Of a stretch of DNA of 64,000 bases, positions 1,026 through 59,277 are shown piece after piece. Within the stretch, counting starts at the first letter, position 1, and every line of letters begins with the position of its first letter. The DNA is taken from assembly GCA_017533505.1 (NCBI GenBank), contig JAFXIB010000109.1, positions 3,752-67,751 on the forward strand. Reading direction: 5' to 3'. The position numbers were made by a program, and so were the translations under genes. The DNA comes from Clostridia bacterium. Lineage in GTDB: Bacteria > Bacillota > Clostridia > Christensenellales > DTU072. Under the pieces are notes generated by a model. That model saw only the letters and a program-made list of their open reading frames with translations. It did not search any database and had not been told where the DNA came from.

Positions 1026-1066
1026 TGATAAGAATTTTATGGTTGCAACACCGATAAGGATATAAT

Positions 1067-3334: not shown

Positions 3335-3353
3335 TCGAATCTCAAACAAAAGC

Positions 3354-3381
3354 AAAGCCCCGATAAAATCGGGGCTTTTTG
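3354..3381. terminator. Bidirectional rho-independent terminator between convergent genes
   Basis: Stem GCCCCGA (3357-3363) / TCGGGGC (3369-3375), with an AAA run before and TTTTT after. It sits between the plus-strand stop at 3334 and the minus-strand stop at 3383. Confidence 0.75.
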
Positions 3382-3382
3382 T

Positions 3383-3817: not shown

Positions 3818-3862
3818 ATCCTCTTTTATATCTTCTTTTAGTTAAAGTATTATAAATGTAAA

Positions 3863-3884
3863 GGGAGCCTTTGTAAGGCTCTCT
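3863..3884 (-). terminator. Weak terminator-like hairpin after the GPH transporter gene
   Basis: Stem GAGCC / GGCTC with a 7-nt loop, 14 nt downstream of the stop at 3898. The T-run is better on the plus strand than on the minus strand. Confidence 0.3.
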
Positions 3885-3897
3885 TTTTAATGTTAAT

Positions 3898-23462: not shown

Positions 23463-24191
23463 TTAACCTCCATAAGTGTAGGTTATTGCAGGAACAACAT
23501 AGTCCTGTTCACCATCTGACATCGACGCATTTTGTATGTTTAGAGTGCCTAATGTTGCTGGTTTGGTTGCCTTTAGTGTTACTATTGTTGCGTTATCTTC
23601 TATACTATCATATCCGTTTAGTGAGTAAACGACAATGACAGCCGAGCTAACAGATGATTGGTAGCACTCAAGACCGAATTTGTCGCTTGCAACCTTGATT
23701 TCACTTAAAGCAATTCCTCCTGTTGTAGAAACAGTAAAGCGCATTGCATATACTCCATTTGCTACCATGGAAGCATTTTTTGCTTTGACCGAAACATCAA
23801 GTGATGCCCCACCGTCAACAACTTCAAATTGATAACGGAAGGATGTATCAATGGAAACTGCATTTGTTACCTTGTAAATGAAGTTGGCGCTTTGTCCACG
23901 ATATGTTACTGTTAGTGTAGCGCCAGTTGTAGTCTTTGATGTATCAAAGCCACTTACCATTCCTAAAGTAATGTTTACATTTTCCGTTTTGCCATCAACA
24001 TATGTTACAAGGATTTTGGAGTTTGTTAAATCAAGGCTCTCGTCAAGAGCATAGCTTTCTTTGAATGCCCCTTTTACAATTTGTATTGATGATACCTGTC
24101 TTTCTGTCTTTGTGCAAGAAACAAGCATGCACAAGCAAAGGGCGCATATAAGGAGTGATAGCATTAATACTCTAAAAACTTTCTTACTCAT
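23463..24191 (-). CDS. Small lipoprotein: one Ig-like (Big_3-like) domain plus a ~135-aa candidate cohesin module
   Basis: Signal peptide with lipobox LVSC. Residues ~35-105 repeat the ...LD.S..KI.VTY.DG....V....VSGFD.S..G...LTVTY.G....F...V pattern seen many times in the upstream protein. The C-terminal ~135 aa is a beta-sandwich-like segment of cohesin size. The start overlaps the upstream stop (ATGAGTAA). The ORF is solid; the cohesin call is tentative. Confidence 0.6.
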   Translation of the reverse strand: MSKKVFRVLMLSLLICALCLCMLVSCTKTERQVSSIQIVKGAFKESYALDESLDLTNSKILVTYVDGKTENVNITLGMVSGFDTSKTTTGATLTVTYRGQSANFIYKVTNAVSIDTSFRYQFEVVDGGASLDVSVKAKNASMVANGVYAMRFTVSTTGGIALSEIKVASDKFGLECYQSSVSSAVIVVYSLNGYDSIEDNATIVTLKATKPATLGTLNIQNASMSDGEQDYVVPAITYTYGG

Positions 24192-42800: not shown

Positions 42801-45800
42801 TCATATCGGCTATCCAGGTCGAGACATACGGTCCCGCAAGATCCCAGACCAGTCCAACTACCGTTCCTGCAATACCATTGATTGCACCAACGATGGTTTC
42901 CAGCAACCAGCCTGCGACCGTATTAATCAATCCACTGATATCCAGTACCAAGATGGATGCAAGACTCAAGTGCAATACATTGTTGCGTATGAATGCTGTG
43001 AGGGATTGTGGCTCCCAATCGTCTTCGTTGGAGAGTGAGCCTTGTACATTTGCTACTTGGGTAAGCTGGTTGATTGGAATTTCAACCTTGTTGGTTACAG
43101 TCTTGTTGAGTGCAAGTCTAATTCTTCTATAAGCATTGTCAAAGAAGATAGGTTCATATGCCTTGAGCAAGCCACCTACATCGATTGAGAAGCTACCAAT
43201 GTTGATAACCCAGTCAAATGCTCCGCCCTTTGATACGAATGCATGGTCGTATGGAGTCAAGCCATTTTCGTCAGCAAATGCTCTTACAACAGGGCTGAAG
43301 TAGGTAGGACCTGTGGTCAAGCTTACACCAAAGCCGATACCGAAGTCGAAGAATACACCCTTTGCCATACCATAGCCAAGGTTTCTCAAGAAGAAGTAAT
43401 CGTTACGCTTTTCAATATAAATTGTAAAGTCGCTCATTTGGATTACATCAAGGATACCTTGAGCAAGGGTTAGTACGCTGATGTTTGCAGCAAGGTTGCC
43501 AGCTGAATCCATACCAACGGTCAAGCCTTCGATACCACCATATTGACTTTCGTCGCCGATAGTTGTGAGCTTGTAGAGTTCGGCAGTCGAACCAAGTGCG
43601 ATTGCAAAGTTACCTTCGTGTACAGCAAGGTTGATGTAGTTGCCCTTTTGGTCAAGCTTTACACGGAGATTGAGGTTGTTTAGACCTTGATATAGGTTGA
43701 TTGATAGTCTAAGGTCTGTGAGGTTTGGTAGTACCATACTATCGCCAAGGAGAGTTTGTACTATTGCCATATTGGGGTTGATGATTAGTTCTTCGTTGGA
43801 GAGCAAAATCTTGAGGAGTGGTGCATCGGTTGATGTTACAAGGTCCATGATTCCGTTTTGAGCCTTGTCATTCAAGCTGATTGCGCCATCTTGAGCACTT
43901 GCAGTAGAGAGTGCGTTGTTTGCATTTACTGCTGCGTTTTCTTTGTCTTCAACGGTGAGAATGCCAGAGAGCATTTCGTTCAAGTTGATACCTTCGTCTC
44001 CAAGGAAGGAGCCAAGGAAGCTGTTGAGAATGCCAAGAACATCAACACCATTTAGTGCTGCTTGGAACAAGCCAAGTCCACTGAGGTTTACATAAGCTGT
44101 ATTGTTCTTACCAAGGAAGTATACACCAATGAGTTCTTCGCCGGTAAGGTTGATTGTGAGTGCCAATGTAGTGTTGGTCATATCTGCAAGGTCTGCAAAT
44201 ACTGTTAGACCAAGTGAGAATACCAATACTGTATTTTGAACATCAAAGTTGATGGTGTCAGCACTCATGCCAAGGAGATTTTGTAGTAGCTCTTGCATTG
44301 CAACAAGTTGTGGAGCTTTTTCGGTATCTCTGGTACGAACGCGTGCTTCAAGCTCAAGGTTGAGTGCAACCTTGCTGATTATGCCGATATCTTCGTATAC
44401 GATACCATCTTCTGCGCTACCTTCAACTTGCTCACGAGCAGTGATAGATGAGCCCTTGTTTTCATCGGTCCACATTTCGAACTTGCCTTGTCTACCATTG
44501 AAGCCGATACGGAATGCCTTTTCGTATGGGGTATCATCGGTCAAGCGCAAGCATAGTCCGTATACTCCGTCTTCGTTGGAGTAACCGACTTGAATATTGC
44601 GGAACATTGGGAGTAAGAGCTCTGCTCCACCCATAATACCTGCGATAGCATCATTCTTTGATGCGTTTGAAAGTAGTGAGTATACAAGAGCACCAGTAAT
44701 TGCAAGTGATGTTTCGTCTGCACCAAAGGTTAGGAGCAAGAGTCTTTCTGTCCAGCCATAATCCTTTAGGTATACTCTGTCGATATGTTGGTCTTCAATC
44801 TTATCAACGCTTTCAAGAGCATTGTCACCTTCTTGAGTTGCATTTTGAGCATTGAGAGCTGATGTATCAGATGCTGTGCTTGCATTGTCTCCACCAGCAA
44901 GACCACCAACAAGGTTCTTTAGTACTGCGCCAAGTTGGAGGCCTTCAAGTTTAACACTTGGGAAGCCAAGACCACTCAAATCAACATAAGCTGTGCTGTT
45001 TTCGTAAATACCATTTTCGTCTTGCTCGTAATTACCTACATAGGTGATAAGGATCATAGTCTTATCATTGTAGGTCATTTCGAGTTGCAATCTCAAAGGA
45101 GTGATGTCACCAAAGTCGATGAAGAGTCTTAAGTGTAGTCCTATTGCAATTGCAATGTCGTCAATGGGTTGTAGTGCAAGGTTGATTTGGCTAATCATGC
45201 TTGCGATGTCGCCACCAATCAAGCCACCTATTGTACCAAGAAGCTCACTCATATCAAAGAGTCCACCAACGGTGTCGTCAATGTTGATTTCAAGATTTAC
45301 TTCTGCTTCCATCTTATAATCGGAAAGTGGACGGAAGTTTTCTGCAAAGTATGCTTGGAAGTCATCTCTCATCATTCCATCAAGAGGAGTTTCTTCAAAG
45401 ATGTTGGTGTTTTCACCAAGACCGATGTCAAGGTTGTGGATGGACAACGAAACATTGTACATGCTCTTTGAGCTTGATACAACCATGAGTACCTTGTAGC
45501 ACTCTACCATACCTGTTCCAAGGTCAACAACTGGAGCAACCTTTAGTGATGCGTTGAGCATTGTACCATAGTGATATAGTGATATAACGCCATCTGCGTT
45601 TTCGCTCCATACATAGGTCTTGAGTTGCAAGAACTCGGAAATTGCATCTACTACCTTTTGAGCATTTGCCTTTGATGCTTGTAGATACTCATCACTACCA
45701 GGATTCAATGCAGGGTCGATTGCAAAGTAGATAGATGGGTCGTAGATGAAGTAGAATACATTACGGGTTCCGGAGTCTTCAAGAGCAAAGTCTTTGTCTT

Positions 45801-48800
45801 CGCTGATAACTTGTTGTCTTAAATAGGTGTTTTCTGCACGAAGTGCGATGTCGCCGTTATCGGTAGGAATGGTTGCGCCAATCAAGAAGCCAGCTTCGTA
45901 AGTTTCACGAATCTTTTCAAGAGCAGCTTGTTCGCTAACAACGCTAACGAGCTTTTCGCCAAGTGAAGAAATATTTATGCCTGCGATGTTGAGTGCAGGA
46001 GCATCAGCTGTGCCTACTACTACAGCAAGGAGAACATCCCCTTCTGATACCTTAATAGATACGCGTGTGTGTGCGCTATCATTAGTAAGTAGATATACGC
46101 CAGTAGCATCGTTGTATGCAACGCCATATCCACCACGGTTTGTCAAGCTATCTACAAGAGCATCCTTGACAGCATTTGCACGGTTGTTGATTTCTTCAGC
46201 TGTGTAATCAACATTCTTTTCAAGTGCAAAGATGTCTTCTGTGCTGTATACAAGATACTCAACATTTAGACCTGCGCCAACAGATGTGATGCCATATGCT
46301 TCGGAATCAAGTGCTGTGCCAAGATATCCGCGTGAAGCATATACGCTATATGAGTTTGCTTCAAAGGTAGCTTCAACACCATTCAAGAATGCTGCTACGC
46401 CACCCATTGTGTTCATAAGAACATCCACACTTTCGCTTGATGCGATTGTGGTGCTGATGTCGGCAATTTCTGTTTCAGATGCATCAATTGGTTCTTGATA
46501 GTCAAGACCTAAATTGAGTGACAAGGAGTTGCCAGTATTATCAAGAACAACTGCAAGGTTACCAATCTTTTCATCGAATGGGAAGCCAAATAGTTGGTCA
46601 AGTATGGTTTGGATTGCAGTTTGTGCTACTACGATAGAAATTGCACCCTTTGTGAATTGGATACTATCAAGTAGTCCAATGTACCACATGGTTTCTTCTT
46701 CTTTTTCTTCTTCCTCGTAGTCGTAGATGTTTTCGTCATCTTCTTCAGCTGCATTTTGTACACCATTTTGAGGTGCGTTTTCGCCTGCGTTTGCACCCGA
46801 ATTGTCGCCAGTAATATCTTCGTCAGCAAGCATACCATATAGGCTTTCAATCAAGTCGTCAAGGGTTTTAACGATGCCACTTGTTGCATTGCCAAGTGTA
46901 CCACCAAGACTATCAAGGACAGCCTTCAAGTTGAGGTTGAGGAATTGCTCAAATACGGCGCTGTTTAGGGTGATACCTGTTATGCCAAGTTCTTCAAATC
47001 CAGCCATGTTCAAGTATAGGCCAAGACCGTTTTCGTTGTAGTCGCTTTCGCTTTGGTTCAATGAGCCTACTACATAGAGAGCAAAGTACTCTTCAAGAAC
47101 ATCGCTTTCGCCTTCAGCATAAGTGCCGTCTTCTTTGAGTTTTACAAGTTGAATTACTGCGTCAATACCCCACTTATCAAGAGCTGTGAGCTTAACATCA
47201 GCCTTGATGCGTAGAGTTGCGTCGCCAATGATATCGTTGAGTGCTTGAATGTAGAATGCAGCACCAACTACATTACCATTTTCGTCAGCTTCGTTTTGGA
47301 ATAGTGAGCTCCAGTTCAAGATGTACTCACGAATGTCTGCGCCTACGGTAATATCAATACCAAGGTTTACTCTCCACTCAACATCAGATGTTGAGAAGCA
47401 TCCTTCATAGAACTTAACTTGTTCTTCGTCATTACGCATGAAGTCAAGGTACTCATTGAAGGAGTCGGTGTTGATGAGAGCAACGGAGTCGTGTAGCAAG
47501 CTTAATGTTGCTGCATAACCAGCACTCATATACTTGTTGCCATCTTCGGTTTCGATTTCTGTACTATTCTTTGTGATATTTATTTGTAGGCTTACACCAC
47601 CTGTACCTTCTTCGAAGAACAAGCCAAGTGAAGCGTGGTCAAGGACTAGGCTTGCGATACCATTGATGGTGTCTTCAGTTACTTCTACATCGCTGTTAGC
47701 AGAGCCAAGAAGTCCTGTCAAGATATCAACAAGAGCATCAGCAACACCTACCAACAATTCCTTGGTAATCATCAAACCGAAGCCTTCGGAGTTCAAGTAA
47801 ATGATAGGCTTCAAGAAGTTACCGATAGCATAGTCGCTTTCTTCATACATATCGATGATAGGATTGCGTGCTGGGCCATCTGGAACGGTGCTTGGTGCAT
47901 TTTGAACATTAGATTCATTGCCACCCGTTGAACCACCACCGATACCTTGGTCTTCATCTTCCATATCGAAGATGCCTGTCATAACATCACGGATAAGACC
48001 GGTAATATCGAACTCGTCGAGCTTGATGTCAAGGTTGGTGTCAAATAGTTCTACTCCAAGGTAAGCTACGTTGTCTACCATGTAAACTTGGAGTAGCTTT
48101 TGAGTATCGTAAATTTCCCCTGTTGTGTTATCGATAATGGTGTAACGGATAACAAGGTCGAGGATAAGTGCTGAATTAAATACTTCTGGGTCGGTGGAAA
48201 GCATTCTCTTAAGGTCAAGACCAGCCTTGAGGTTGATTTCCATGAATAGTGTTTCGTCACCACCAGCAAGAACGATAGAAGTATCAAGGTCTTCTGGTAG
48301 CTTGATGTTGAGCATACCAAATACCAAGTCGAGTAGGTCAACAAGTGATACATCACCATCTTCAAAGTCAAGTTGGATGCTTATGTTGGTACCGATTTGG
48401 AATGCCATTTCGTCATACTTGGTGTATGAACTGATTTCTTCTTGGCTGATAACAGGTTCCAATGTGGATTGAATACCATGTGGGGTATGAATCTTGGTTT
48501 CGTTCTTGATGTCAGCAGCAATTTGTTCTCCCAAAATTGCAATACCAAGCTTGATACCTGCATTGGAGTTATCTTCTTGCTTTTCTGGTACGATTTCGTA
48601 TTCGCCAGTTGCTTCGTTATATTCCCAAACATCACGGTAGTCCTTACCGGTATCAAGGTTGATGTCAACATGATACTCGCTGTTTGGTGTCATTCCCACG
48701 CCTGCACTTGGCTCAATTACGCCCTTCAAGTAGTCTTCAAGTGGTATATTGAGTCCTACCAAGCCAAGAACAACATTAATCATTTCAAATGTTACTGTTA

Positions 48801-51800: not shown

Positions 51801-54800
51801 CCATTACATCAATGATGAATCCTGTGCCGTTACCAAATACAAGTCTTACATAAGGTAGGAGTTCTTCAGAATCAAACTTGCTGTCAATAGCATATTTAGC
51901 AAGATATTCTTCATCACTCATCTTTCCAGAAGCGCGCAACTCTGATGTGCTTGCGTTTTGAACAGAGGTGTCGCCTTCGTATATTTCGTCGTCGTCTTCT
52001 TCTTCCTTATCAAAGTAATCTTTAAGACCATCTTGACCGATTAGTCTGAAGATGTGGTCAAGGAACATTTCAACCTTGATTCTTTGTATGCCAAGCATAC
52101 GGCCATCAATGTATGCTGTACCGTCTGCATAATATAAGGATATATAGTCGATGATTGTTTCAGTATATGTTACTGTTTCGCCCTTGAGTGCGCTTTGCTC
52201 AACATCAATGTATTCGCGTTCGACCTCAACACCAATACGGAGCATAAGTTCTGCTCTAACAAGCAACCAGTTGATGTCACCAGTTGCAACAACCTTCATA
52301 AGGTCATGCATGTTAATATTGAGTGAAAGCTCAAGTAATAGCTCTTTGTCTTCTAAACCAGAGTTCTCAATGATAGCACCAAAATCTACTTCTGTGAAGA
52401 ATGCTTCAAGGAGTTCTTTGAAATCAATTGCAGTTTCGGGAGTGGTGTCCTCTGCTCTGAGCTTGGTCTTACCACTAAATGAAATGTTGATGTTTTGTTC
52501 AGCCATTTCTGCTGGGTTGAACCAGTAGTAATGGTTGTTAGGATTGAGAAGGCCTCCTTGCATGGTGCCGTATTCGTCAATAGTACCGGTGTAGTAAGTG
52601 TCGTCTGGGCTTACGGATACATTTATAGAACCGATTTCAAGTTGAACTTCAAGGAGTTCTGCAAGGCTAATGTTTGCAAGCAAGAATGCACTTCTATAGC
52701 CACTTTCTGCCTTTTCATCTGGAATCTTGGCTGCGCCAAGCTCGATGAGTAGGCTTGGCTCGTGAATTCCAAAGAATTTAGATAGGTCTATTGCACCATA
52801 TTTACTTATGTCTATTGGCAAACCTGTTTCCATGCTATGTAGCAAGCCATAGTAGAGATACTCATAGTTTGCTTGTGTAATTTCACCACTTGCAAGCATG
52901 TCATCAAGCTCTGCCTTACGAATAGCTGTTAGACCTTTCTTCAAATTGTTATATTGATCTTCTGCATATACGCCGTCAAGCGCACTTATTGATGTATATA
53001 GGGTTTCAACAGGAACCAAATTTGCATTCAATGTATTAAGTGCTTCTTGGCTGATGTTGGGGAAGAATTGTGCGTGCTTTTCGCCTATCATTTCCTTGTA
53101 TTGAGCAAGGAATGCTGTGAATAGTGCATGCATGTCTTCAATAGACATATCCATGCTTAAGCTGTCAATTAAATTTACCCATACTGTGTCGATAGCGTTG
53201 TAATCTTCAATTGAAAGATTTCCTTGGCCTTCGTTATATTGGGCACTCAAAGAGCTTCTGTAGGTTTCTATCAATCCTTGGATAGCATAATAGTACTCTT
53301 GGGCTGAATATACACCAGTATTTACATAGGTTGAAATCTTGCTTTCATCAATCTCGATTTGGAATTCTTGGTCTGTTGAAAGCAAACTATTGGCAAGTGA
53401 GTAAATTGCAGCAGCAGGTGCAACGATAGCAACAGGTGCTCCGTTAGGAATGCCAAATGTATCTGGATCTGCAGTAATTGCCAAAATGATGGATGTTGCT
53501 GTCATGATGGAAGGAGCTACCTTACCATCAGCATTTCTTGGGAGAACCAAGCCGTTGTTTGTGGAGTTGAGAGCAACAGGATCGATAGTTTCAGTCTTGT
53601 TGGTCATAACCTCGGCAAAGTTTTCCATATATTCGGTAAATGCGTTGAAGTTATTGATGCGAATAATGTCATTAATCTCAAGAACATCACCAAATACTTT
53701 TGTAAGGTCGGCGAATACATTGAGGTCTATTTCGCCTGTGACAGGATCTTCTACGCCCATCAAGCTTACCCACATGATGTCACCACGGTTTTCAAGCTTT
53801 GGTGATGTGGAGAAGAATACTGATGCCTTCAAGTTAGCAATGTTGGAAATATCAAGGATAACTTCAATATCGTAATAGAGTGAGCCACCAAATGTTGCTG
53901 TGCCGTTTGCAACATTGCCTACAACTTCTACGATAAGTGCAAAGTTGAGGAGTGCTTGGTAGTCAACATTTGTTCTGACTTCTTCGTGATAAATGGCCTT
54001 GAGTTCATCATCACTATAACCTGCATATTCGGGCTTCAACGATGTTTCTCTAATCCATTGCAACATCTCTTTTTCAGCGTTTTCGCCGAGAATTTTCTTA
54101 AGTTCTTCTAAAATGTGAGTAAGAACCGTCAAATTACCCGTTGCGCCCGTTTCTGGATCAACAACACCTTCAGGGGAAGTTATTTCAAATTTAGCAACGC
54201 CACCAAGGCTAACACCTATGGTATCAAGAGATTCGATTTCGTCGTATTTAGCCTTTTCCTCTTCATCAAGCTCAACCATCTTGTCCATGAGGATAACAAG
54301 CTTGTTGATAGATGCGCTAAGAGTTACGAAGTTCTTGTCGTTTGGAGTTGCAGTACCCTCTTCGTCTTCACCATCCATACCTATATCGCGTAGTTTGAGT
54401 GCAAGGAAGATTTCAAGTGGGCTTGCGTTGATTCCAACTTCAACACCAAGGTCAAGGCTCTTGAGATATTCTTCGATATTCAATCCAAGCATGTTGAGTA
54501 CGCCAACTACAAATGACTTTGCAATGGTTACACTCAAACCATAATCTGCAAGAGCAAGATTGATATAGTACTTGATTGTGTCAACTTCAACGGGGTTAAC
54601 TTCTGCGCCTTCGTTGTTAGCATAACCAATTTCAACGCCTTCATTTGATGCTATTGCACCAAGTAGACCAGCAATGAGCTCGTTTGCTTGTGGAATATGG
54701 ATATACTCAAGATTTGCAATAAATGTTTCAATGTGAGCATATACATCGCCTTCGATGTAGTAAATTTCCATTACTGGACGACGAGCGCGATTACCATTTT

Positions 54801-57800
54801 CGTCATAGTAATCTTCGTCGCTTGGGTCAGATGATGCATATGTAGAAAGGATAATTGCAGCACCTGTTTGTTGTAGGTTTGCAAAGTCAAATCCATTGTT
54901 AATGATGCCAATAACTTCTTGGAGATTGAGGTTTGCGTTGATATCAAAGAACAATGATTCGTCAACAAGACCCAAGAACTCAATGAGCATGCTGAGCTCA
55001 ACATCGCCAAGTAGTCCACTGAGTGCAGGAGATAGGTCGATAGTGTTTCTATCGCTGCCTTCAACAACTTGGCTGTTGATGTTTGCGTATCCACCAAGTT
55101 CAAGGTATACATTTGTGGGCAAACCACTATCGGATAGGAAGAATTCTTCATTTTCTGGTAGAGAAACCAAGAATTCAGCGCCACTCAATTCTTCGCCGTC
55201 AAGAGCAATCTTGAATTGGCTCAAGCCAAGGCTCAAGTTGAAGATTTCGATACCAGTTTCAATTTCGAGATATGCGCCCTTGTCTCCTAGACCAAGCTCA
55301 AGAGATGTTTCTTGTATTTCAATTGGTAGTTCGCTTGAAAGGAATAGTCCAAGTAAACCTGCGATAGCATCCTTTGTAAGGTTGATTGCTACCTTATCGT
55401 AATCAAGAATAACTTGGAGTGCAACGGCTGCAGGATTTGATGCGTCAGCAAATTCAGCTACTCTATTGAGATGTAATAGGTTTGCAGGAGCTTCGTCCTT
55501 GTCTGCTTCAGCAGAGCCAGTTAGCGTGCCAATATCATCGATGAGTGATGCAACATCGTTGATACCGATGTTTGGAATGCCAAAGAAGCTTAAATCAAGG
55601 TATAGGTTGCCATCAAGCAAGTAAATGCCAAGAATGTGTCCTGCATCTCCTGGAACCTTTCTATCAAACAGACGGATTGCAAGCTCACTTCCACCCAAAA
55701 TTGTTGGGATAGGATCAGCTGCTTCGGAGCCGTCAAGCTTGATGATGCCACCAAGAGAGAGTTTTGCAATGATTTCAAAGCCAAGTTCGATGTTGAGTCT
55801 TGATGTATCAATTACCAAACCAAGACCTTCAATTAGGCCAGAAAGCATTTCGTTTAGATATGCATTGGTGTACTCTTGTACACCTTGCATAACTTGGTTG
55901 CCGTCCTTGTCAAGAACAGGAATCTTGTTTCCTTCGCCGTCTACAACATAGTTGCCTTCGTCGTCAACTTCATATACTGGAGTTTCGTCAACAGTAAAGT
56001 CAAAGTGGCCTTCAAGCCTCAAACCAACAGTTAGGCTATCAAGGAATTCAGGAATAGATACGAATGATTGGATATAATCGTCTTCTTCAATGTCCTTGTA
56101 GAGGTTTTCCTTGCCAGCTCTCAATGCGATATCCTTCAGGATATCGATTTCAAGAGAAATAGCTTCGATTGTTTGATCGCCATCGTCAAGGAGTGATAGG
56201 TAAATGCGTAGATATCCGTTTTCTGGGAATATTGTACTATTGCCATTTTCGTCTTTGCCAAAGTCAAAGTTGATAGCTTTGATTTGTACAAATGCATTTA
56301 CATTTGGCATTGTGATAGTTTCGGGGTTACCAAACTCATCAACTGGAGCAAGGAGCATGGTGAGCAAGCTGGAAAGTACATTTGCTGCTACATAAACAGT
56401 CAAAGTGCCCTTGATTCTATCAATTTCAACTTCGCTGAGTGCCATGCCTACGATTTGCATGATATCAAGACCGCCGCCCTCTCCTTCTGGAGTTTCGCCT
56501 TCGGTTGTATCGCCAGTAGGCTCGCCGTCATTGAGTGCGTTAAAGAGCATTGCGCCAACTTCTTCGCCACCGATAAGGATACCACTTGCAAGGTACTCAT
56601 TAACTACCAAATATTGGTATAGGCCAAGCTTTGCTTGGTTCAAGAAGTTAGGATCGGATGTATCAATAGTAAGTGCGTTTTGTGCTCCACTATCTTCGCT
56701 TGTAAGCAGTCCTGCAATGATTGATGCAATATCAAGACCTGCAAGTGTATCACGCAAGCCTAAACCTTCGTATTTGAGTCTTGGGAGCTTGCCAAGAGAA
56801 GCAAATCCCATGTTCTTGAGTGGCTCAAGGTCAATGTACAATGTATCTTCGATACCAGAGTAAATAACACGAATGAATGGGTCGTTATTTGCACGATTGA
56901 AGATGGTAACCTTGAGTTCGGTTTGAGCCATATCAAGAAGGTCAATATTTCCTTGAATGGTGTAAGCAATGGTTGTGCTACCATCGTACTCTACGCCGAT
57001 AGAAAGGAGTAGATTGTCAACAAAAGTACCAATTAGACCACTTAAATCAAGGCCCTTGTCTGTTGTTTCGGATGCGCCAAGCGTTACATCACCTTGCAAA
57101 ATAACATTGTAGTTACGGTTTGCAGCGATAAAGTCGCCATTATCAGTCTTATAGATGGATAGGTTGGTGTACTTTGCGCGTTCTTCGGCAGTATCTACCA
57201 TTGAGTAGTTTTCCCAATCGGGCTCTCTCATGTATGTTAGGTAGTCAACAGCAAGACCAAGACGGAAGGTGTCGGATACATCAATAACCAAGCCAAGAGT
57301 GTCAAGAACATTCTTTTGGTTGAAGCTGAGTCTTACATTGAGCTCTTCGCCAAGGTTACCTTTTAGTGGCGTAATCATGCCAACGATTTGTGATAGGTCC
57401 TCGCTGTTTAGGTCAAGAGCGATATTCCAATCGTTTGGTATGGGCTTTCCATAAGCATCGGTCTTAACGGTACCATCTTCGTTATATAGATATTCTTCGA
57501 TACCAGGAAGCTCGAGATTGTTGAGAACAACCTTTATGATTGCCATGACATCGATGCTTGGTGCAGGTTCGCCACCCTCTTCGCCTTCATTAAACAAGCC
57601 ACCAAATAGTGCATTAGACGCTTGTTCTTCGGGAACAGCAGGCTTTACATAGTTGGGGTCAAGATATGGCAAAATGCCACCTAATACGCCACCAAGGAGA
57701 TTGTTGATATCAAAGCCTTGTAGAACTACATTTGGTAGCAATTGTCCACTATATGTTTCGAGGTCCTCAAAGTTGATGTAAAGGTTCATTCCTGTTAGGA

Positions 57801-59277
57801 ACAATCTCATAAGTGGTGAGTCGTTGAAGCTAATGGTAATTTCGGCTTGTGTCTTTGCGCCATCAAAGAAGTCAAGAGCAAGCTTTACATCAAGACCAAG
57901 TTCATAACGAGCTGCGTATGGAAGGCTGATGGGCATATCGCCAAGTGCGCCAAGGTTGAGGTCAAAAGCTTCACCCAGTACACGATTGATGGTTAGACCA
58001 CCATTTTCGTCATTTTCAAAGTATAGAGTTGCGCCCAAGCCAAGGTTGCCGATGCCACCTTCTGAATAAGTATCCTTTCTGCCTTGTTCGTTGAGTCCAA
58101 GTCCACCAAAGTTGATTTGGATCTTCTTGTTTGAGCCATATAGCAATGGGGTAAGACCGATGTTAACTTCGTATTCTTCAATGCGTTCGCCCTCTGCCAT
58201 GTCAGATGGATATGTATCAGCATATGTTTCACGAGTCTTTTCTACATCGTTTGCAGTTTTGATATCAATGCCAATGCCCTTCATAACATAGCCTTCTTCA
58301 TTTACAATAAGGCCGTCGCTATCGGTCTTTGTGAGTGTTTCAAGCTCTGTTCTTGCGCTCAAACGAGCATCCATCTTGGGCCAATCCTTTGCGCCAATAC
58401 GCTCAAGGTTAAAGCCAAGGAATTGTAGTAATACTGGGTCAAGGTTTAGACCAACAAGGTCCCAAATGCCAGCAAAGCTTATGGTGATAACGCCAGGAAT
58501 GGAAATACCACTACCTGAAAGCATGTCAATCAAAGTGTTAAGCTTGAGGCTGTATTCTAAATCTCTGTTTTCAAAGACTTCGTCTTCGCGTTGATTGTAA
58601 CTTGTTACATAACCATTGCTGTTGAACAATAGGGTTCCCACAAGACCCATAATGCCCAAATCGTCAAGAGCAGCTATACCTGTTTTACCACCTGCCATGA
58701 TAGCCGCAAACAATTGGTTAACATCAATACCGGCACTTTGTAGTACACCAAAGAGCGCTCCACCCACCTCTGTGAAGTTCAGCTCAGGCATATAATATTT
58801 TTGTGTGCCTACGCAAACATAAGTGTATCCACTTGCATAGTAGACTGCCATAACAGCCAAGTTATTGGCATTTCTAACTTGCATGAACAACTCACTTTTG
58901 TTGTTGTCCTTGAGGTGCAAGTTGCCCTTCATTTCGATAGTGAAAGCAGAAGACTTGTTATACTTCTCCTCGCTATCAAGCCAGAAGTGCTCAAATGCAT
59001 ATGTAAGTGTAAGGTCGATGATGAACCATTCTGGATCCTCTGGAGCTTCGTAGAAAGTCTTGTAGTTTGACAAAGCTTCGGTGGTCTCTTTCTTGAGGTC
59101 ATCGGTCTTGGTCCTTACGGATTGGACAACCTTGTCGGCAACTTGGTTTTCGTCACCAGGCAAGATTTGATCATCGGGGAGAGTTTCATCTCCACGAGGG
59201 GAACAAGCAAAAAGTGCAACTACCAATGCAACTACGATAAGTAGCAACATCAGTTTGTGGGCTAAATTGCGGTTCAT
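30829..59277 (-). CDS. Giant 9,482-aa predicted surface lipoprotein: ~14 tandem novel modules, glycine-zipper segments, CarboxypepD_reg-like domains, C-terminal Big_4-like Ig array
   Basis: 28,449 nt with no stop codon in an AT-rich genome. AAAGGAG RBS 8 nt before the ATG and a near-consensus promoter at 59373-59401. The signal peptide ends in LFAC. The internal architecture is described in the findings. I recognised no LPXTG, SLH, dockerin, RTX, Rhs/YD or enzymatic motifs. Confidence 0.9.
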   Translation of the reverse strand: MNRNLAHKLMLLLIVVALVVALFACSPRGDETLPDDQILPGDENQVADKVVQSVRTKTDDLKKETTEALSNYKTFYEAPEDPEWFIIDLTLTYAFEHFWLDSEEKYNKSSAFTIEMKGNLHLKDNNKSELFMQVRNANNLAVMAVYYASGYTYVCVGTQKYYMPELNFTEVGGALFGVLQSAGIDVNQLFAAIMAGGKTGIAALDDLGIMGLVGTLLFNSNGYVTSYNQREDEVFENRDLEYSLKLNTLIDMLSGSGISIPGVITISFAGIWDLVGLNLDPVLLQFLGFNLERIGAKDWPKMDARLSARTELETLTKTDSDGLIVNEEGYVMKGIGIDIKTANDVEKTRETYADTYPSDMAEGERIEEYEVNIGLTPLLYGSNKKIQINFGGLGLNEQGRKDTYSEGGIGNLGLGATLYFENDENGGLTINRVLGEAFDLNLGALGDMPISLPYAARYELGLDVKLALDFFDGAKTQAEITISFNDSPLMRLFLTGMNLYINFEDLETYSGQLLPNVVLQGFDINNLLGGVLGGILPYLDPNYVKPAVPEEQASNALFGGLFNEGEEGGEPAPSIDVMAIIKVVLNNLELPGIEEYLYNEDGTVKTDAYGKPIPNDWNIALDLNSEDLSQIVGMITPLKGNLGEELNVRLSFNQKNVLDTLGLVIDVSDTFRLGLAVDYLTYMREPDWENYSMVDTAEERAKYTNLSIYKTDNGDFIAANRNYNVILQGDVTLGASETTDKGLDLSGLIGTFVDNLLLSIGVEYDGSTTIAYTIQGNIDLLDMAQTELKVTIFNRANNDPFIRVIYSGIEDTLYIDLEPLKNMGFASLGKLPRLKYEGLGLRDTLAGLDIASIIAGLLTSEDSGAQNALTIDTSDPNFLNQAKLGLYQYLVVNEYLASGILIGGEEVGAMLFNALNDGEPTGDTTEGETPEGEGGGLDIMQIVGMALSEVEIDRIKGTLTVYVAANVLSSLLTMLLAPVDEFGNPETITMPNVNAFVQIKAINFDFGKDENGNSTIFPENGYLRIYLSLLDDGDQTIEAISLEIDILKDIALRAGKENLYKDIEEDDYIQSFVSIPEFLDSLTVGLRLEGHFDFTVDETPVYEVDDEGNYVVDGEGNKIPVLDKDGNQVMQGVQEYTNAYLNEMLSGLIEGLGLVIDTSRLNIELGFEIIAKLSLGGIIKLDGSEAADPIPTILGGSELAIRLFDRKVPGDAGHILGIYLLDGNLYLDLSFFGIPNIGINDVASLIDDIGTLTGSAEADKDEAPANLLHLNRVAEFADASNPAAVALQVILDYDKVAINLTKDAIAGLLGLFLSSELPIEIQETSLELGLGDKGAYLEIETGIEIFNLSLGLSQFKIALDGEELSGAEFLVSLPENEEFFLSDSGLPTNVYLELGGYANINSQVVEGSDRNTIDLSPALSGLLGDVELSMLIEFLGLVDESLFFDINANLNLQEVIGIINNGFDFANLQQTGAAIILSTYASSDPSDEDYYDENGNRARRPVMEIYYIEGDVYAHIETFIANLEYIHIPQANELIAGLLGAIASNEGVEIGYANNEGAEVNPVEVDTIKYYINLALADYGLSVTIAKSFVVGVLNMLGLNIEEYLKSLDLGVEVGINASPLEIFLALKLRDIGMDGEDEEGTATPNDKNFVTLSASINKLVILMDKMVELDEEEKAKYDEIESLDTIGVSLGGVAKFEITSPEGVVDPETGATGNLTVLTHILEELKKILGENAEKEMLQWIRETSLKPEYAGYSDDELKAIYHEEVRTNVDYQALLNFALIVEVVGNVANGTATFGGSLYYDIEVILDISNIANLKASVFFSTSPKLENRGDIMWVSLMGVEDPVTGEIDLNVFADLTKVFGDVLEINDIIRINNFNAFTEYMENFAEVMTNKTETIDPVALNSTNNGLVLPRNADGKVAPSIMTATSIILAITADPDTFGIPNGAPVAIVAPAAAIYSLANSLLSTDQEFQIEIDESKISTYVNTGVYSAQEYYYAIQGLIETYRSSLSAQYNEGQGNLSIEDYNAIDTVWVNLIDSLSMDMSIEDMHALFTAFLAQYKEMIGEKHAQFFPNISQEALNTLNANLVPVETLYTSISALDGVYAEDQYNNLKKGLTAIRKAELDDMLASGEITQANYEYLYYGLLHSMETGLPIDISKYGAIDLSKFFGIHEPSLLIELGAAKIPDEKAESGYRSAFLLANISLAELLEVQLEIGSINVSVSPDDTYYTGTIDEYGTMQGGLLNPNNHYYWFNPAEMAEQNINISFSGKTKLRAEDTTPETAIDFKELLEAFFTEVDFGAIIENSGLEDKELLLELSLNINMHDLMKVVATGDINWLLVRAELMLRIGVEVEREYIDVEQSALKGETVTYTETIIDYISLYYADGTAYIDGRMLGIQRIKVEMFLDHIFRLIGQDGLKDYFDKEEEDDDEIYEGDTSVQNASTSELRASGKMSDEEYLAKYAIDSKFDSEELLPYVRLVFGNGTGFIIDVMGSVLFAILGGLDLGIDGVDDLGSLVAAIVNDHFALQLGLIANLAYMNDFWTNDPDENGVVTEDENALLGLTLELANYTVGFALMGLDVDFKDSSEENPSLAPVAFDDEAYSEATDLSEVYVELYVDFDIDGDNNAKFNLDETVAGALGMLGSGGIMDTIGGLGLAPIIQLLSTVSTHYRLEIIGNINFDEILELNTLYKTNFAITLRDRNKVINYDGEEKFKEVLSVYYVDTAIYINAECFNLQAVKIDNAWNFLTQEILPAFGVPHTPNDKNPDGGKPVNAQNLGFAGYESVNGFDPYSLFNLPAGATAIPGYINILFSPEGFIISLTTTALFGVLRAIGGEAMDFSSFVEPIGELEIELGLAGPETLLALDITFQGYEFSGDERVDLSTDPNVHEYKKGGKIGIGLSISNTFVAALSYQWMEDIYYSDGRIESHYVDHNIEAPRYAYLDGETLDEEGNVVTEYIAQEYVEFDQSDPVIGLELNLYLDLGSEALSGDGIKGVLTDKIYSGYDLNKEPITSLLASLLGSMLDTTLSLLLEVVGEHQMSVEVEILVNFPLLNYRGVEAQITIRRIDGNHNYKLVQVNLHNSFLYVDLTYLNGPKFSVADVLETLLGEKDFDLMGDGEKKEETEGTEGEGTVEGGVQNASGVQNATGSGVSTPIYIDLATQMVIRSVATHGLALYVTETAVNSILGMFEFANLKVFSDVLLQISIAPKANTFNLGIDLELSATSTVDDISDTAKVLDLGIAIGDHRVNFERYPSDQLLLPQTANYLPAHNVNTIEVEAGFEIRLKVNDGVVDLGNLYKTILDENGPLGEMAANTAFETLFSKDSPLATALPNLIMLGFLNDDENGFGDVIRIDIEAKVFIKGGLQGLLDNLQLKVAIYSLKDQERFKIVITYYNGDLYLDLSTLGLGKIEIWELGGMINFLINGGKTEEESPEGEVTNPDEGAQNAVTPETEQLFAKTYPTWGQVLGLNNESDEEQLVGIVKILLSQDDGLLLTVTFEMINVVLGLVGLNIPLEDYLKGVIEPSAGVGMTPNSEYHVDINLDTGKDYRDVWEYNEATGEYEIVPEKQEDNSNAGIKLGIAILGEQIAADIKNETKIHTPHGIQSTLEPVISQEEISSYTKYDEMAFQIGTNISIQLDFEDGDVSLVDLLDLVFGMLNIKLPEDLDTSIVLAGGDETLFMEINLKAGLDLKRMLSTDPEVFNSALILDLVIRYTIIDNTTGEIYDTQKLLQVYMVDNVAYLGVELFDTNLDIKLDEFDITGLIRDVMTGIFDMEDEDQGIGGGSTGGNESNVQNAPSTVPDGPARNPIIDMYEESDYAIGNFLKPIIYLNSEGFGLMITKELLVGVADALVDILTGLLGSANSDVEVTEDTINGIASLVLDHASLGLFFEEGTGGVSLQINITKNSTEIETEDGNKYMSAGYAATLSLLHDSVALINTDSFNEYLDFMRNDEEQVKFYEGCFSTSDVEWRVNLGIDITVGADIREYILNWSSLFQNEADENGNVVGAAFYIQALNDIIGDATLRIKADVKLTALDKWGIDAVIQLVKLKEDGTYAEGESDVLEEYFALYVVGSLNQSESDYNENGLGLYLNMAGFEELGITGITLNSAVFEQFLNLNLKAVLDSLGGTLGNATSGIVKTLDDLIESLYGMLADEDITGDNSGANAGENAPQNGVQNAAEEDDENIYDYEEEEKEEETMWYIGLLDSIQFTKGAISIVVAQTAIQTILDQLFGFPFDEKIGNLAVVLDNTGNSLSLNLGLDYQEPIDASETEIADISTTIASSESVDVLMNTMGGVAAFLNGVEATFEANSYSVYASRGYLGTALDSEAYGITSVGAGLNVEYLVYSTEDIFALEKNVDYTAEEINNRANAVKDALVDSLTNRGGYGVAYNDATGVYLLTNDSAHTRVSIKVSEGDVLLAVVVGTADAPALNIAGINISSLGEKLVSVVSEQAALEKIRETYEAGFLIGATIPTDNGDIALRAENTYLRQQVISEDKDFALEDSGTRNVFYFIYDPSIYFAIDPALNPGSDEYLQASKANAQKVVDAISEFLQLKTYVWSENADGVISLYHYGTMLNASLKVAPVVDLGTGMVECYKVLMVVSSSKSMYNVSLSIHNLDIGLGENTNIFEETPLDGMMRDDFQAYFAENFRPLSDYKMEAEVNLEINIDDTVGGLFDMSELLGTIGGLIGGDIASMISQINLALQPIDDIAIAIGLHLRLFIDFGDITPLRLQLEMTYNDKTMILITYVGNYEQDENGIYENSTAYVDLSGLGFPSVKLEGLQLGAVLKNLVGGLAGGDNASTASDTSALNAQNATQEGDNALESVDKIEDQHIDRVYLKDYGWTERLLLLTFGADETSLAITGALVYSLLSNASKNDAIAGIMGGAELLLPMFRNIQVGYSNEDGVYGLCLRLTDDTPYEKAFRIGFNGRQGKFEMWTDENKGSSITAREQVEGSAEDGIVYEDIGIISKVALNLELEARVRTRDTEKAPQLVAMQELLQNLLGMSADTINFDVQNTVLVFSLGLTVFADLADMTNTTLALTINLTGEELIGVYFLGKNNTAYVNLSGLGLFQAALNGVDVLGILNSFLGSFLGDEGINLNEMLSGILTVEDKENAAVNANNALSTASAQDGAISLNDKAQNGIMDLVTSTDAPLLKILLSNEELIINPNMAIVQTLLGDSMVLPNLTDLRLSINLYQGLNNLNLRVKLDQKGNYINLAVHEGNFAIALGSTAELYKLTTIGDESQYGGIEGLTVGMDSAGNLAANISVLTLAQGILDVIQMSDFTIYIEKRNDYFFLRNLGYGMAKGVFFDFGIGFGVSLTTGPTYFSPVVRAFADENGLTPYDHAFVSKGGAFDWVINIGSFSIDVGGLLKAYEPIFFDNAYRRIRLALNKTVTNKVEIPINQLTQVANVQGSLSNEDDWEPQSLTAFIRNNVLHLSLASILVLDISGLINTVAGWLLETIVGAINGIAGTVVGLVWDLAGPYVSTWIADMIGDATGYGSPLRLGAIIDDLLGGGAGGIALVNLYLPEFLPTLVASLKPVAEDTNYGSIYGNVNTFDADANAYVPVEGATVTLDNGRYTTTTDKDGYYSFINIRPNTYPIKITKTGYNDLPRRGETQPYVTILRSNERPSTEANFTLNSYSVTTWKNVHFKVTTEEEYIENNTATRPMVGAKVEIYRNGAWQELGVTPDSGSIQVVIESLEGFNHTIRLTKTNGQVINQTLGLNLNADGTPNSRTAENPYTMHFKTTVYHEPTSGTMSAILITLKDETLLDSGTATEVFTLLAKDQKGGNTYDDGKANQIDSIFNDTFDDALEAQAGRVYSSYEQNGILYHVYDFDSADKVTTGIKNLVENTLKTDTQANYTITENIPNMYYHAVSYDKRAIVEVRGFISQKILEQGITTPVYRVVVAMQKAVTTPVLSGVEIWLELDGRTIRMADDWNGLNQNTVHYKKPDNTGSEQGDWYWANNARNFLAAAQNNNSQSDINVKNVNNLRSNGSFDIPNLALHRNYTLKVRATDYVNFDVGSFTLTETANYYNFGEIFLDPKPVPEWMTKDLSSSALLQGLRLRLGADVSDASSVDKNDQSLEDAGYTQDGIPLTQYSYLTSLGDQTINALISIGKGQASSAITNAISNAIGGIGGSIVSGLAGNVLGSLLGSVTGVDTTSQYLDAMGKPIFVPWTNYVAGFEEGREDTSDSITYIEVWIASDMINGVFDMVHNLLLGYSGYSPISKTQRYNMADLCAVPAGTEEKDIKKLNFIGEYNEDLDIRMFDYVYENQAEYTNTLYTAGGRLVGSLLAGVISSLLGGDLNGIFNIVQMVLYEINFLMDIIDQALRLVSHLLPFSSAYSMIAEQGLAGSPLQQSAIASTIWEADTAYGFLDSEYNEQTGVYEPVVEGTAATIEEVGLDDDITKILIDPTHELNGGRFDHLDTDVKDLINNQGLLQKGDRLVGYNYYNYAQYGYSTLKNVIDGEHDGLVNIDATFDDDGNIKTGYYRDIDFIDKSVYAKVTLNNAVDTLLDRITLFLNGASYSEATLGAVGIKYEQTGTDEDGNPIYSVVETEDGYMPNATVLRADTILYSPETGAPIDDKYLALEEMINDWVDTNIVNSYVIINDYQYTADPVTGAVTKTLIGKTYVRDVYGHFDSEDFLYGDISWMVSENLYDPNFNWAGLATGSALYSEALSGYNFSYVSRYPIIRDAQGNPTGLNYDTVGPFAEALTLMSAKDDRFQEIDINNTGIYMRSVSTMTSEFYNSKANGSTGMREIMMIPPTKIVFHDPYNILDFTAYGGTWASETAGIRHNLNSDGSYVVTDIKDILPNRNYANFEDGNSSESAGVEVYWDFTMLSFAPSKEGTKGFIIGYCAEETYSKDRNGEVQYIQAEVEAGIMVDPDSTLKLEEQGIRNNQQISWVIDEDNTEPVLSLPEIDPLTYNPDEYIKLLPSTLVYTAKLRYMQQGVYQKFNIYGQETDYILKRYVFNDLKWDLSETEVKYDGSTAYASLTYSFKRTYDNWDHIMLGKDSEEVTIQVPIKVKNCVAISTNRISSVMGVNLVYQKGGTMVVAVGRENATIAGFNSQYVSNVAQVVDNITVSDLTAMYGSFPEYMGAMNTLTMYRDNSTDRVYLVYTGVSLDEFESYRDYLVGKGVNSLIENNSANYAVLADNERVYHYSGTTSNFEAQLQENVLTVNPIENSNLYNNIMGIKWIDITVNETDRENNVVLDENGNAKTTTINNWNVVSVDASSIRDLDLEATSHPLYEVYFTVEDAMGNKQVITIYINVLPKKIVEHNLEETIIDRDIAPFEARQNATLLVSFEIGYDMVMAIYPAGVEATIADLDVNAIKANNTEVSSALWPATKVAKFGGIAEYNRTNTGIKAYEATNGTLYIVVSGVSERDFEAYVTILEEARMLNKKHIDNMSAIGAGLDLGTAIYLASGSVNAFNLPNTIDVGYGVDADNIFYRTTLVEGKDFYWRADDQAKLDYNYSDNRNWTYTWTAVVGRDDNVQEIAVDFTVERRSPRSVDQITVYPYSSYYITGTNTEIDDNASVLENEQKVLFSTASGNQTLSTQVYFDIESTDWADEVEGDEVIINGKKYLTNVRFIAPSFEGAWYFADVLLHDDVFGYVTIKHVRIVLSKSTISSLNIPAMEVYLYDADAGIDALLAQDGITASIHQVANNTIGTKAFEIISWSYVDANGFKPSYSYEGEDAPQINIEIGNVGYKEGNHIWSQQVTFTLTEEMLPAKVIESINNTTETGYSVEYKENAVNGEGTNGAYILSIGDPFKFALPTALDVTFADGTVGSVPVSFDFGDDKFDFYKATAGICGTVTLGDKANNQVVLNMNYVNLNPRGDIQVTFYSDESLTQEFNTFTYNAFDVFELPKFAQLTVGGALETNVYNVYWKYIEGYGVNGGEIEALAWIGDDVFGYIQKKVTFTINAEHIVNYTLPNSVRLNPYAVVGIEAELDNLLGLTNGMLDVQTSLGLNKALDVRYPDIPMDYRVTTTNDVDLEVGVTLDFGGVERIVTLDEEGNIIGSTTGALDVREELPVMVIVESRVAVGIKTWYTDANTNITGSIYEPIDFSALGLATIVAIGNGKNNANTLISDATSLAQAIEGATLVEETVWPSAVNGWNKATEYAKANGQIAKVYYNEALDTYYIAYRGSVDVKALTDKIEESGLYTRIKDGTYLVTGDDVMVEVKAFNEGVTVLFESGEEEKYDLTFDTTGLTYNFTGGTYNVKATLGSGATEQIFQFKVYLHSTWLTDISVTSAGLSQNSVVRTNDDGIITGLVVDPFVGFEGLPSKVLAHFNYHSSPVEIDVDWSYERILSQMTMAGGEFNRDNNKAAIATIYIPSEDGRQAAQPIEIPVTVLNRESRAVYVSKYASHEDWQKAVDTLGASVAGAEFTIFTAELALNPYETKYSEDFASDDFFFFRRVMLMVNRIEGEDTSSNIFEHNDKEIIFNLTADSYEIRDTATNRPTNLNNLYTGRSVEAIFNYGSTSASASRDTKFTTSVSLTIHNMTYESGLKEVYELDIYGVDSSLATELDPFVGQGADVMTTTEAGVFNTVSGNTFQSDILYDRVDALTTFDSHGRRSGTVGVEGGTARLYATIGNDLGGYQTVTIPVHYANRKVVSLFTADESRYAYDTDYEGVEVSMHFELDPFAAYGKDYVYPQVGNNVVYADGTVGSFATSGSGVLVEWDDSKVIRTYAGSTTGFVTATVSYKGTFQQSLRYKVIVYDRTATAFTNVLQEGKDEIQPYLYSYVDDVSAAVTEEYFTKGQFTVAFGNLPEGREIATRSITFSLGQLASANSASLADELEFKDEEAALKMNFVLDGARGLGHKGKDARFYITIPGFGLGAKGQQLARFDVPVAESYIHGVRFYDKNSHKDENDPTAYTLDYMEWLKQNDPNSFKADSSGRAPIRWAPTQYGQYYYDTYFVDSPYYYITKGGIPMPTQALVYVGKNMDNKIDMASTDYATYSFMSETNWDNIVNNRTRIKYNVFDHSTAFQLDLDGQTYSFKFNISDEWQLDTAQQQDILFSETYQYGKEEVILMPGNSSVYKKDILTVSTLGNVEIVAGSGIYRNDTYTITFPSGRKYTFEGVAGSGSYSNNYGKWNFDSVQWSAASTVRQYANMTLGGRGGQTVKWGFYVNSNKVLVNNTIPTLYSMRLGESITLESTYKQLFAGSTLGSSRWIPVEYSSGVTSYYSSGGTNSDTYPLGISREGQSYMVSSTMHTPSYHYTDDGSGYSAFITWDATSERAYPKATKSVGGKIVFTVYRDPATEDAPEVKEANGGKGPYDNLKSFGAYLHNPDAMFGYSELRPLLPEEWLYPQDMSALGAVNIVGNSVTMPKDATSYRVVYKNNRMQQTGAPVIRVSVNSMFDLRYLPTIAVTEYRPTIEYNPGGIGGVFTSQTSEGFEYDLMYLIPWQNAKVYWTNQKEDPNRWNPVNGQYGTLVPEGFGAISTESSKRSGRYTLVTDMDFGSGTVLKVFCSIDIV
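40801..40920 (-). other. Glycine-zipper hydrophobic segment 2 of the giant protein
   Basis: Translates to GQASSAITNAISNAIGGIGGSIVSGLAGNVLGSLLGSVTGV, with Gly at every 4th residue over about 25 aa. Confidence 0.6.
42440..42640 (-). other. CarboxypepD_reg-like (Cna-B-like) beta-sandwich domain in the giant protein
   Basis: SIYGNVNTFDADANAYVPVEGATVTLDNGRYTTTTDKDGYYSFINIRPNTYPIKITKTGY fits the G.V.d..g.Pv.gA.V.l......t.Td.dG.Y.f..l..G.Y.l...k.Gy pattern. Confidence 0.6.
42661..42950 (-). other. Glycine/alanine-rich hydrophobic segment 1 of the giant protein
   Basis: Translates to LDISGLINTVAGWLLETIVGAINGIAGTVVGLVWDLAGPYVSTWIADMIGDATGYGSPLRLGAIIDDLLGGGAGGIALVNLYLPEFLPTLVASL. Confidence 0.55.
59203..59277 (-). 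other. Signal peptide with a lipobox-like cleavage site on the giant protein
   Basis: MNRNLAHKLMLLLIVVALVVALFAC-SPRG has a positive n-region, a 15-aa hydrophobic core and L-F-A-C at residues 22-25. Phe at position -2 is atypical, so cleavage by SPase I rather than SPase II is possible. Confidence 0.55.

Follow-up and report, generated by a model that had tools for sequence, protein, structure and literature searches.

An ancient array of about 14 divergent modules in a giant lipoprotein family of gut Christensenellales, a candidate surface stalk or scaffold

Introduction

Christensenellales are among the most studied of the health-associated gut taxa, and their cell surface is poorly known. 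In one member of the order, a Clostridia bacterium of the lineage DTU072, a single open reading frame (ORF) on the minus strand encodes a protein of 9,482 amino acids (aa), and the question that it raises is what the N-terminal half of so large a protein is built from and what it might do. The ORF lies within the stretch of DNA analyzed here, which is 64,000 nucleotides (nt) long and is referred to throughout as the window (contig JAFXIB010000109.1, positions 3,752 to 67,751, of assembly GCA_017533505.1). A preliminary description of the window had drawn attention to positions 43400-59200, a span that corresponds to residues ~26-5292 of the 9,482-aa ORF. Here, we describe the array of modules encoded in this span and the family of proteins to which it belongs, and we weigh the reading that it forms an extracellular stalk or scaffold against its rivals.

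Results

A giant ORF with a lipoprotein signal

The ORF and its signal peptide are placed in the window as follows.

30829..59277, minus strand: whole giant ORF, 9,482 aa in one open frame
59203..59277, minus strand: lipoprotein signal peptide with lipobox Cys, MNRNLAHKLMLLLIVVALVVALFAC, aa 1-25, read directly from the translation

The N-terminus, MNRNLAHKLMLLLIVVALVVALFAC with Ser as the next residue, is a signal peptide that ends in a lipobox Cys (LFAC), and it is the sole strongly hydrophobic segment of the entire protein (Kyte-Doolittle score of 2.86, with a cut-off of 2.5). A signal peptide and a lipobox with an invariant Cys together identify bacterial lipoproteins, and the window protein has both. 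Its full-length relatives, described below, also carry a signal and a Cys at about position 22-27 (for example IAAC, VVAC, LVGC and LLSC). A spurious ORF was considered and rejected, because the frame is open in the genomes of relatives and the ratio of nonsynonymous to synonymous substitution rates (dN/dS) is 0.05.

A tandem array of highly divergent modules

Residues ~244-5380 are organized into 13 solid and one or two degenerate tandem modules of ~260-320 aa each. Self-BLAST of the whole array returned the identity match only, and after this failure to show internal repeats the modules were compared by module-wise Smith-Waterman alignment against shuffled sequences and by hidden Markov models (HMMs). 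Pairwise similarity is weak, with a mean Smith-Waterman z of 2.0 relative to the shuffles and z > 4 in 13 of 78 pairs, and identity between paralogous modules of the protein is no higher than 15-21%. In leave-one-out tests with HMMs of window modules alone, 10 of 14 score 10-25 bits and exceed all 200 shuffles. An external HMM, based on 231 modules from other proteins and none from the window, matches 13 window modules at E-values of ~4e-42 to 9e-5, and it also gives a weak partial match at aa 100-185. The resulting map is given below, with E-values from this external HMM.

57667..58548, minus strand: module 1, aa 244-537, E 4.5e-12
56707..57456, minus strand: module 2, aa 608-857, E 2.7e-42; 20.7 bits in the leave-one-out test
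55486..56451, minus strand: module 3, aa 943-1264, E 3.5e-33
54628..55431, minus strand: module 4, aa 1283-1550, E 1.7e-36
53596..54579, minus strand: module 5, aa 1567-1894, divergent, E 1.3e-9; missed by the window-only leave-one-out test
~52788-53343, minus strand: lineage-specific insert, ~aa 1978-2163, which precedes and overlaps the start of module 6; a gap in collinearity with relatives P0003 and P0004
52006..52854, minus strand: module 6, C-terminal part, aa 2142-2424, E 9.5e-25
51028..51864, minus strand: module 7, aa 2472-2750, E 4e-40
49906..50874, minus strand: module 8, aa 2802-3124, E 1.4e-40
48979..49800, minus strand: module 9, aa 3160-3433, E 2.3e-35
47947..48852, minus strand: module 10, aa 3476-3777, E 9.1e-34
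46855..47805, minus strand: module 11, aa 3825-4141, divergent, E 9.2e-5
44875..46683, minus strand: module 12, aa 4199-4801, split by an insert into two HMM pieces, E 3.5e-7 and 3.6e-28
~45493-46497, minus strand: lineage-specific insert of ~330 aa in module 12, ~aa 4260-4595, absent from P0003 and P0004
43981..44754, minus strand: module 13, aa 4842-5099, the modelled module, E 8e-39; AlphaFold2 confidence 79.4
43138..43830, minus strand: degenerate module 14, aa 5150-5380, E 0.016 only; a stretch conserved in orthologues

By eye, the insert in module 12 looks similar to small alpha/beta units seen several times in the distal half of the protein (aa ~7040-7150, 7320-7400 and 8075-8170).

The preliminary description had proposed about 14 tandem, highly divergent modules with a conserved start and a conserved end, and both the external and the leave-one-out HMM tests agree with it. 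All ten of the end motifs that it quoted lie at the positions it gave (for example, aa 498 at nt ~57.78 kb and aa 5061 at nt ~44.09 kb), and both motifs reappear in the consensus of 625 family modules, which starts with i.lg..gl.l.it..aL..LL..LgG and ends with iYy.dg.LYlDLsgLGlpKikI.giDL..lL..Llgg. The most conserved columns across these 625 modules are Y (87%), D (67%) and Y (66%). The array extends to ~nt 43138, slightly beyond the lower bound of 43400 suggested previously. As had also been claimed, the array is free of long DNA repeats according to both Tandem Repeats Finder and a repeat finder, which reported only an 18-nt duplication within one linker and matches of 25-38 nt that coincide with the conserved motifs. 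A recent repeat expansion was rejected, since no DNA repeats beyond these short matches were found.

Acidic linkers and a clade-specific tripeptide

The segments between modules of the window protein are 17-83 aa long (median 43), with an excess of D, E, G, S, T, N, Q, P and A. The linkers of more distantly related proteins have medians of 17-30 aa. The array as a whole is strongly acidic, with 847 D+E to 295 K+R, a net charge of -552 over 5,305 aa. In the two-module structure model described below, the linker between modules 9 and 10 has a predicted local distance difference test (pLDDT) score below 50. The tripeptide QN[AG] occurs 10 times in the array compared with 1.5 expected, and nine of these are in linkers by the linker definition used.

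~43858-56682, minus strand: (V/A)-Q-N-(A/G) sites in acidic inter-module segments, at aa 866, 2440, 3137, 3143, 3444, 3792, 4170, 4174, 4811 and 5140

The recurrence is visible in the DNA as the short repeats GCATTTTGTAC and GCGTTTTGTGC, and the 18-nt tandem duplication in a linker, at 49838-49877, is part of it. Linker QN[AG] is specific to one clade, with nine in the window protein, five in relative P0009 and zero to two in most family members, and is therefore not a functional site of the family at large.

A clade-restricted family under purifying selection

Building an HMM of the modules and searching with it had been suggested in the preliminary description. An exhaustive profile search over 1.84 billion protein cluster representatives identified 110 relatives at E<=1e-3, including 28 at E<=1e-30, and the module matched no sequence family in Pfam, NCBIfam or the PDB. 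The top matches are proteins of 5,600-7,900 aa with 12-15 matched stretches each, and full-length relatives have a lipoprotein signal followed immediately by 13-15 modules with a period of ~250-350 aa. A word-indexed homologue search was nearly blind to the family, returning two fragments for a 1,012-aa query and one match for each of two alignment queries. Public records give family members no name other than "hypothetical protein" or "carboxypeptidase-like regulatory domain-containing protein".

BLAST aligns both halves of the window protein collinearly with relatives P0003, P0004, P0011 and P0007 at 25-39% identity, so that each module has its orthologue at the corresponding position. Given that modules are orthologous across the family, whereas paralogues within the protein are only 15-21% identical, the array must be older than the radiation of the family. 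The window protein shares the arrangement that defines this family, namely 13-15 collinear modules directly after a lipobox signal and then a conserved GDxTGYGNPL region. Comparison with the closest relative gives a dN/dS of 0.048 for the modules and 0.087 for the linkers. The one-to-one collinearity, the low dN/dS in the modules and the lack of DNA repeats uphold the earlier proposal of an old duplication maintained by selection.

When one genome was scanned for each GTDB species, 30 loci were located, all of them in gut-derived metagenome-assembled genomes (MAGs) of Clostridia. Loci of Candidatus Stercoripulliclostridium are 73-77% identical to the window protein and a locus in a MAG from roe-deer colon is 92% identical; others belong to Christensenellaceae and Christensenella sp., and there are also loci from termite, ruminant and human samples. 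Over the part retrieved (up to 21 kb), the ORF is open in almost all 30 loci, at GC contents of 32-57%. The gene forms one open frame in 30 other genomes, whereas at locus L001 (4212-21593 of ENA ERZ16268046:scaffold_1172, GC 54%) the orthologue was called as five pieces of 1920, 1554, 175, 191 and 1908+ aa, which could be an assembly error or a pseudogene.

Comparison of the module with known domains and folds

When the whole protein was compared with Pfam at E<=0.1, nothing was found in aa 1-5000, and none of AsmA, AsmA_2, DUF490/TamB, DUF748 and related models was detected. Forty modules compared separately with Pfam at E<=1 gave 17 singleton matches and no recurrent family, none of the matches being related to AsmA, TamB/DUF490 or Chorein. 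Cohesin (PF00963) had no match in the Pfam scans of the protein or of the 40 modules, and Big_1-Big_9, SdrD_B, FIVAR and G5-like repeat families had none within aa 1-5300. NCBIfam gave 0 matches. Of two profile searches of PDB sequences, one found nothing at E<=10 and the other a single uncharacterised protein at E 1.4.

Structure prediction for one and two modules, followed by Foldseek, was another approach proposed in the preliminary description, and it produced no significant match in the PDB. Using a 40-row module alignment, AlphaFold2 modelled module 13 with a mean pLDDT of 79.4 and a predicted template-modelling (TM) score, pTM, of 0.49. The model has ~12 long strands, two of which reach 13 residues, and four helices, in the order of an N-terminal hairpin and two helices, then four strands followed by one of 13 residues and by a helix, and finally five strands leading to the YxDL hairpin and a terminal helix. 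Against the PDB, Foldseek found nothing for this model at E<=1e-3 (best E 0.03, TM <= 0.2), and the matches listed, M23 peptidase, LnmK, MHC/CD1 and P47, were judged meaningless. A match to a viral model at E 5.8e-4 was dismissed because its TM was 0.22 and its target was unnamed. The model of two consecutive modules (aa 3140-3790), which was made from a shallow alignment of 22 mixed orthologue and paralogue rows, is poor (pLDDT 59, pTM 0.45) and shows the same long-strand pattern. Its Foldseek matches included porins, AlgE, ApoB100 and Aap, none of them significant (best E 0.0099, TM <= 0.1). TamB, VPS13 and ATG2 were absent from the best 50 PDB matches of both models. Mean-field direct-coupling analysis of 623 modules yielded short-range and gap signals only and no strand topology. 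Within the reach of these searches, which for Foldseek comprised the PDB and viral models, neither sequence nor structure links the module to anything described.

Of the three or four helices of a module, three carry a motif of the type L..LL..LLG, each following a block of strands.

Consensus columns 23-33, 145-155 and 240-250: L..LL..LLG helices, for example aa 4862-4873, 4989-5002 and 5080-5094 of the window protein

This hints that the module derives from a smaller strand-plus-helix unit. When the two halves of the module were aligned with hhalign, only a 32-column match over a strand and the DL..LL..LLG helix was obtained (P 0.004, probability 8.6%), too little to establish that the module itself arose by duplication.

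The region after the array and the distal half

The array is followed directly by two features, the first assessed in a four-sequence alignment of aa 5101-5620.

42643..43137, minus strand: best-conserved stretch of the family, aa 5381-5545, 40% identity to the window protein with many invariant columns
42448..42585, minus strand: CarboxypepD_reg (prealbumin-like) domain, aa ~5565-5610, PF13620, E 9.5e-11

The best-conserved stretch is Gly-rich and hydrophobic and contains GDxTGYGNPLRLGxIIDD; it could be a functional core or a hinge. CarboxypepD_reg is the sole Pfam domain of the entire 9,482-aa protein. The distal 4,100 aa (aa 5300-9482, window 30832-43377, minus strand) have no match in NCBIfam, and comparison with PDB sequences gave nothing beyond a chance-level match to gasdermin (E 0.04). 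In the distal parts of three distant relatives, Pfam offered sub-threshold hints of MfA4_C and Big_4 only.

Gene neighborhood

The neighbors of the ORF in the window are typical of spore-forming Bacillota and include SpoIIE, AddAB, signal peptidase I, a GH20 enzyme and a P-type ATPase. The product of the next gene downstream (24184-30471, minus strand) is 2,095 aa long and combines RCC1_2 repeats with a Big_3 domain; its match to Dockerin_1 is marginal, at 23.9 bits where the cut-off is 22.9, and no single stretch passes alone. Genes for a Big_3 protein of 242 aa and a GH20 hexosaminidase come next. Earlier work had noted giant proteins with RCC1 repeats in gut Clostridia (bioRxiv 10.1101/2023.11.21.568195). 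The upstream neighbors of the orthologue at L001 differ from those in the window.

Discussion

We favor the reading that the array is an extended, acidic extracellular stalk or scaffold of position-specific modules that holds the distal half of the protein and has a role in adhesion or surface architecture, and we put its probability at roughly 50%. According to this reading, the signal peptide would be cleaved and the mature protein anchored to lipid through the lipobox Cys. The anchor is followed by ~14 tandem beta-rich modules joined by acidic, predicted-disordered linkers, and this membrane-proximal half of a giant lipoprotein would form a stalk or scaffold of roughly fixed length. Such an array may keep the 4,100-aa distal half, with its prealbumin-like domain and, in relatives, weak Ig-like hints, outside the cell wall. 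Judging from strand lengths of 13-18 residues, each module would span ~4-6 nm and the array tens of nm from end to end. Because the modules are position-specific, diverged and not interchangeable, each of them probably makes its own contacts and the array is probably more than a generic spacer. A fibrillar stalk was the conservative alternative offered in the preliminary description, and it is a plausible fit to the evidence. By analogy, a role in adhesion or cell-surface architecture is probable, as other giant proteins of Clostridia have been interpreted as adhesion-related (bioRxiv 10.1101/2023.11.21.568195).

Several observations weigh against the stalk or scaffold. No homologue of known function was found that would point to a stalk or to adhesion. 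The distal half that the array is proposed to hold is dark to Pfam apart from CarboxypepD_reg, the two-module model is of too low confidence (pLDDT 59, pTM 0.45) to give the geometry between modules, and the genes around the ORF differ between the window and L001, which leaves genomic context without a functional hint. Furthermore, classical adhesin stalks have near-identical repeats in variable number, whereas repeats that are ~15-21% identical and fixed in number suggest something more specific than a spacer.

Like the giant adhesin stalks SasG/Aap (B-repeats), Ebh and the SiiE/BapA-type arrays of immunoglobulin (Ig) domains, the window protein would project a distal region on tandem beta-rich domains, and Aap was among the non-significant Foldseek matches of the two-module model. 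The repeats of SasG/Aap, Ebh and SiiE/BapA are 80-130 aa long, nearly identical, variable in number and assigned to known Pfam families, and the proteins are anchored by LPXTG or a type I secretion system. In contrast, the window modules are 260-320 aa long, ~15-21% identical, present in 13-15 copies, orthologous position by position and unmatched in Pfam, and the anchor is an N-terminal lipid. At 9,482 aa, the window protein also resembles the giant proteins described from Clostridia of the mammalian gut, which have 10,000-30,000 aa and more and for which a role related to adhesion has been proposed (bioRxiv 10.1101/2023.11.21.568195). However, those proteins are built from known repeats (RCC1, Listeria-Bacteroides repeat, YG, dockerin and leucine-rich repeat), whereas the window modules are in no library. 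What is described here is a new domain family in a new giant-lipoprotein family, while the giant bacterial surface repeat protein is itself a known kind.

Among the alternatives to a stalk or scaffold that holds the distal half, the one that survives best is a scaffoldin-like docking platform, in which each of the 14 modules would bind a different protein or glycan partner and organize a surface complex as cohesin arrays do. Modules that are orthologous one to one, diverged from one another, fixed in number and separated by flexible linkers speak for such a platform, and the likeness to cellulosomal scaffoldins, which also carry tandem modules and flexible linkers on the surface of Clostridium, extends to the weak dockerin match in the adjoining downstream gene for the 2,095-aa RCC1/Big_3 protein. 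That match is compatible with docking and proves nothing, being marginal (23.9 vs 22.9 bits), and the neighborhood differs at L001. Moreover, Pfam has no family, Cohesin included, that recurs among the modules, which lack a cohesin signature and have double the length of a cohesin, and their linkers are acidic and not Pro/Thr-rich. We regard a docking platform as a serious rival, if an unlikely one.

A broader proposal is that the array, far from being a passive stalk, is a fixed-length, position-specific machine that spans the envelope and is found in Christensenellales only, acting either as a segmented conduit of amphipathic beta sheet similar to TamB or VPS13 or as a scaffold of non-cohesin type with 14 distinct docking sites. 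This is unlikely, and if true, either version would be a new protein architecture on a new fold; the conduit version would have evolved independently in bacteria that stain Gram-negative and have no classical outer membrane.

The conduit taken by itself is a poorer candidate. It would make the window protein a functional analogue of AsmA, TamB and VPS13, with sheets that line an envelope-spanning groove for lipids or hydrophobic molecules, and the preliminary description had noted a loose resemblance to AsmA/TamB. In common with AsmA-like proteins, TamB, YhdP and VPS13-type proteins, the window protein is very long and beta-rich, with amphipathic strands, and it has an N-terminal membrane anchor and repeated units that are diverged to the point of having no mutual similarity and are fixed in number. 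A repeating beta-groove unit consists of ~5 strands and a helix, and in the module 13 model the N-terminal hairpin and helix appear to be followed by two blocks of ~5 strands and a helix, which recalls that unit. In addition, some Christensenellaceae stain Gram-negative. Nevertheless, the resemblance is not supported by the searches for a family or a fold: Pfam AsmA, TamB and Chorein are unmatched, and the PDB profile and Foldseek searches gave no significant match. The window protein differs from AsmA, TamB and VPS13 in having a lipobox lipid anchor in place of an uncleaved membrane helix, a strongly acidic array (net charge -552) interrupted by acidic, predicted-disordered linkers of 17-83 aa, and a large non-repeat half of 4,100 further aa beyond the array. 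Christensenella minuta, the only cultured relative that the literature discusses, is reported to stain Gram-negative and yet to be without BamA, OmpH, LptA and LpxABCD, that is, without BamA and the Lpx and Lpt genes of lipopolysaccharide (LPS) (PMC11448272), and the host clade of the window protein, unlike that of AsmA and TamB, probably has no Omp85 partner. A conduit is thus very unlikely, and this judgment concerns its mode of action and not membership of the AsmA/TamB family.

Finally, it is scarcely credible that the array is a polyprotein from which cuts in the linkers, at sites such as the recurrent QNA motif, free proteins the size of a module, because the excess of QN[AG] in acidic inter-module segments (10 vs 1.5 expected) is clade-specific, with zero to two in most members, and so cannot be essential to the mechanism of the family, and no protease is encoded nearby in the window.

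Whichever of these readings applies, the analysis defines a clade-restricted family of giant lipoproteins under strong purifying selection, with an array of ~5,000 aa made of a module that is absent from Pfam, NCBIfam and the PDB. Ancient, non-interchangeable modules in fixed number are unusual among bacterial surface repeat proteins, and the whole 9.5-kaa protein belongs to functional dark matter. The module is a clean target for the definition of a new domain family and for structural work, and the family is a concrete candidate for the means by which Christensenellales construct their unusual envelope or attach themselves to partners or substrates.

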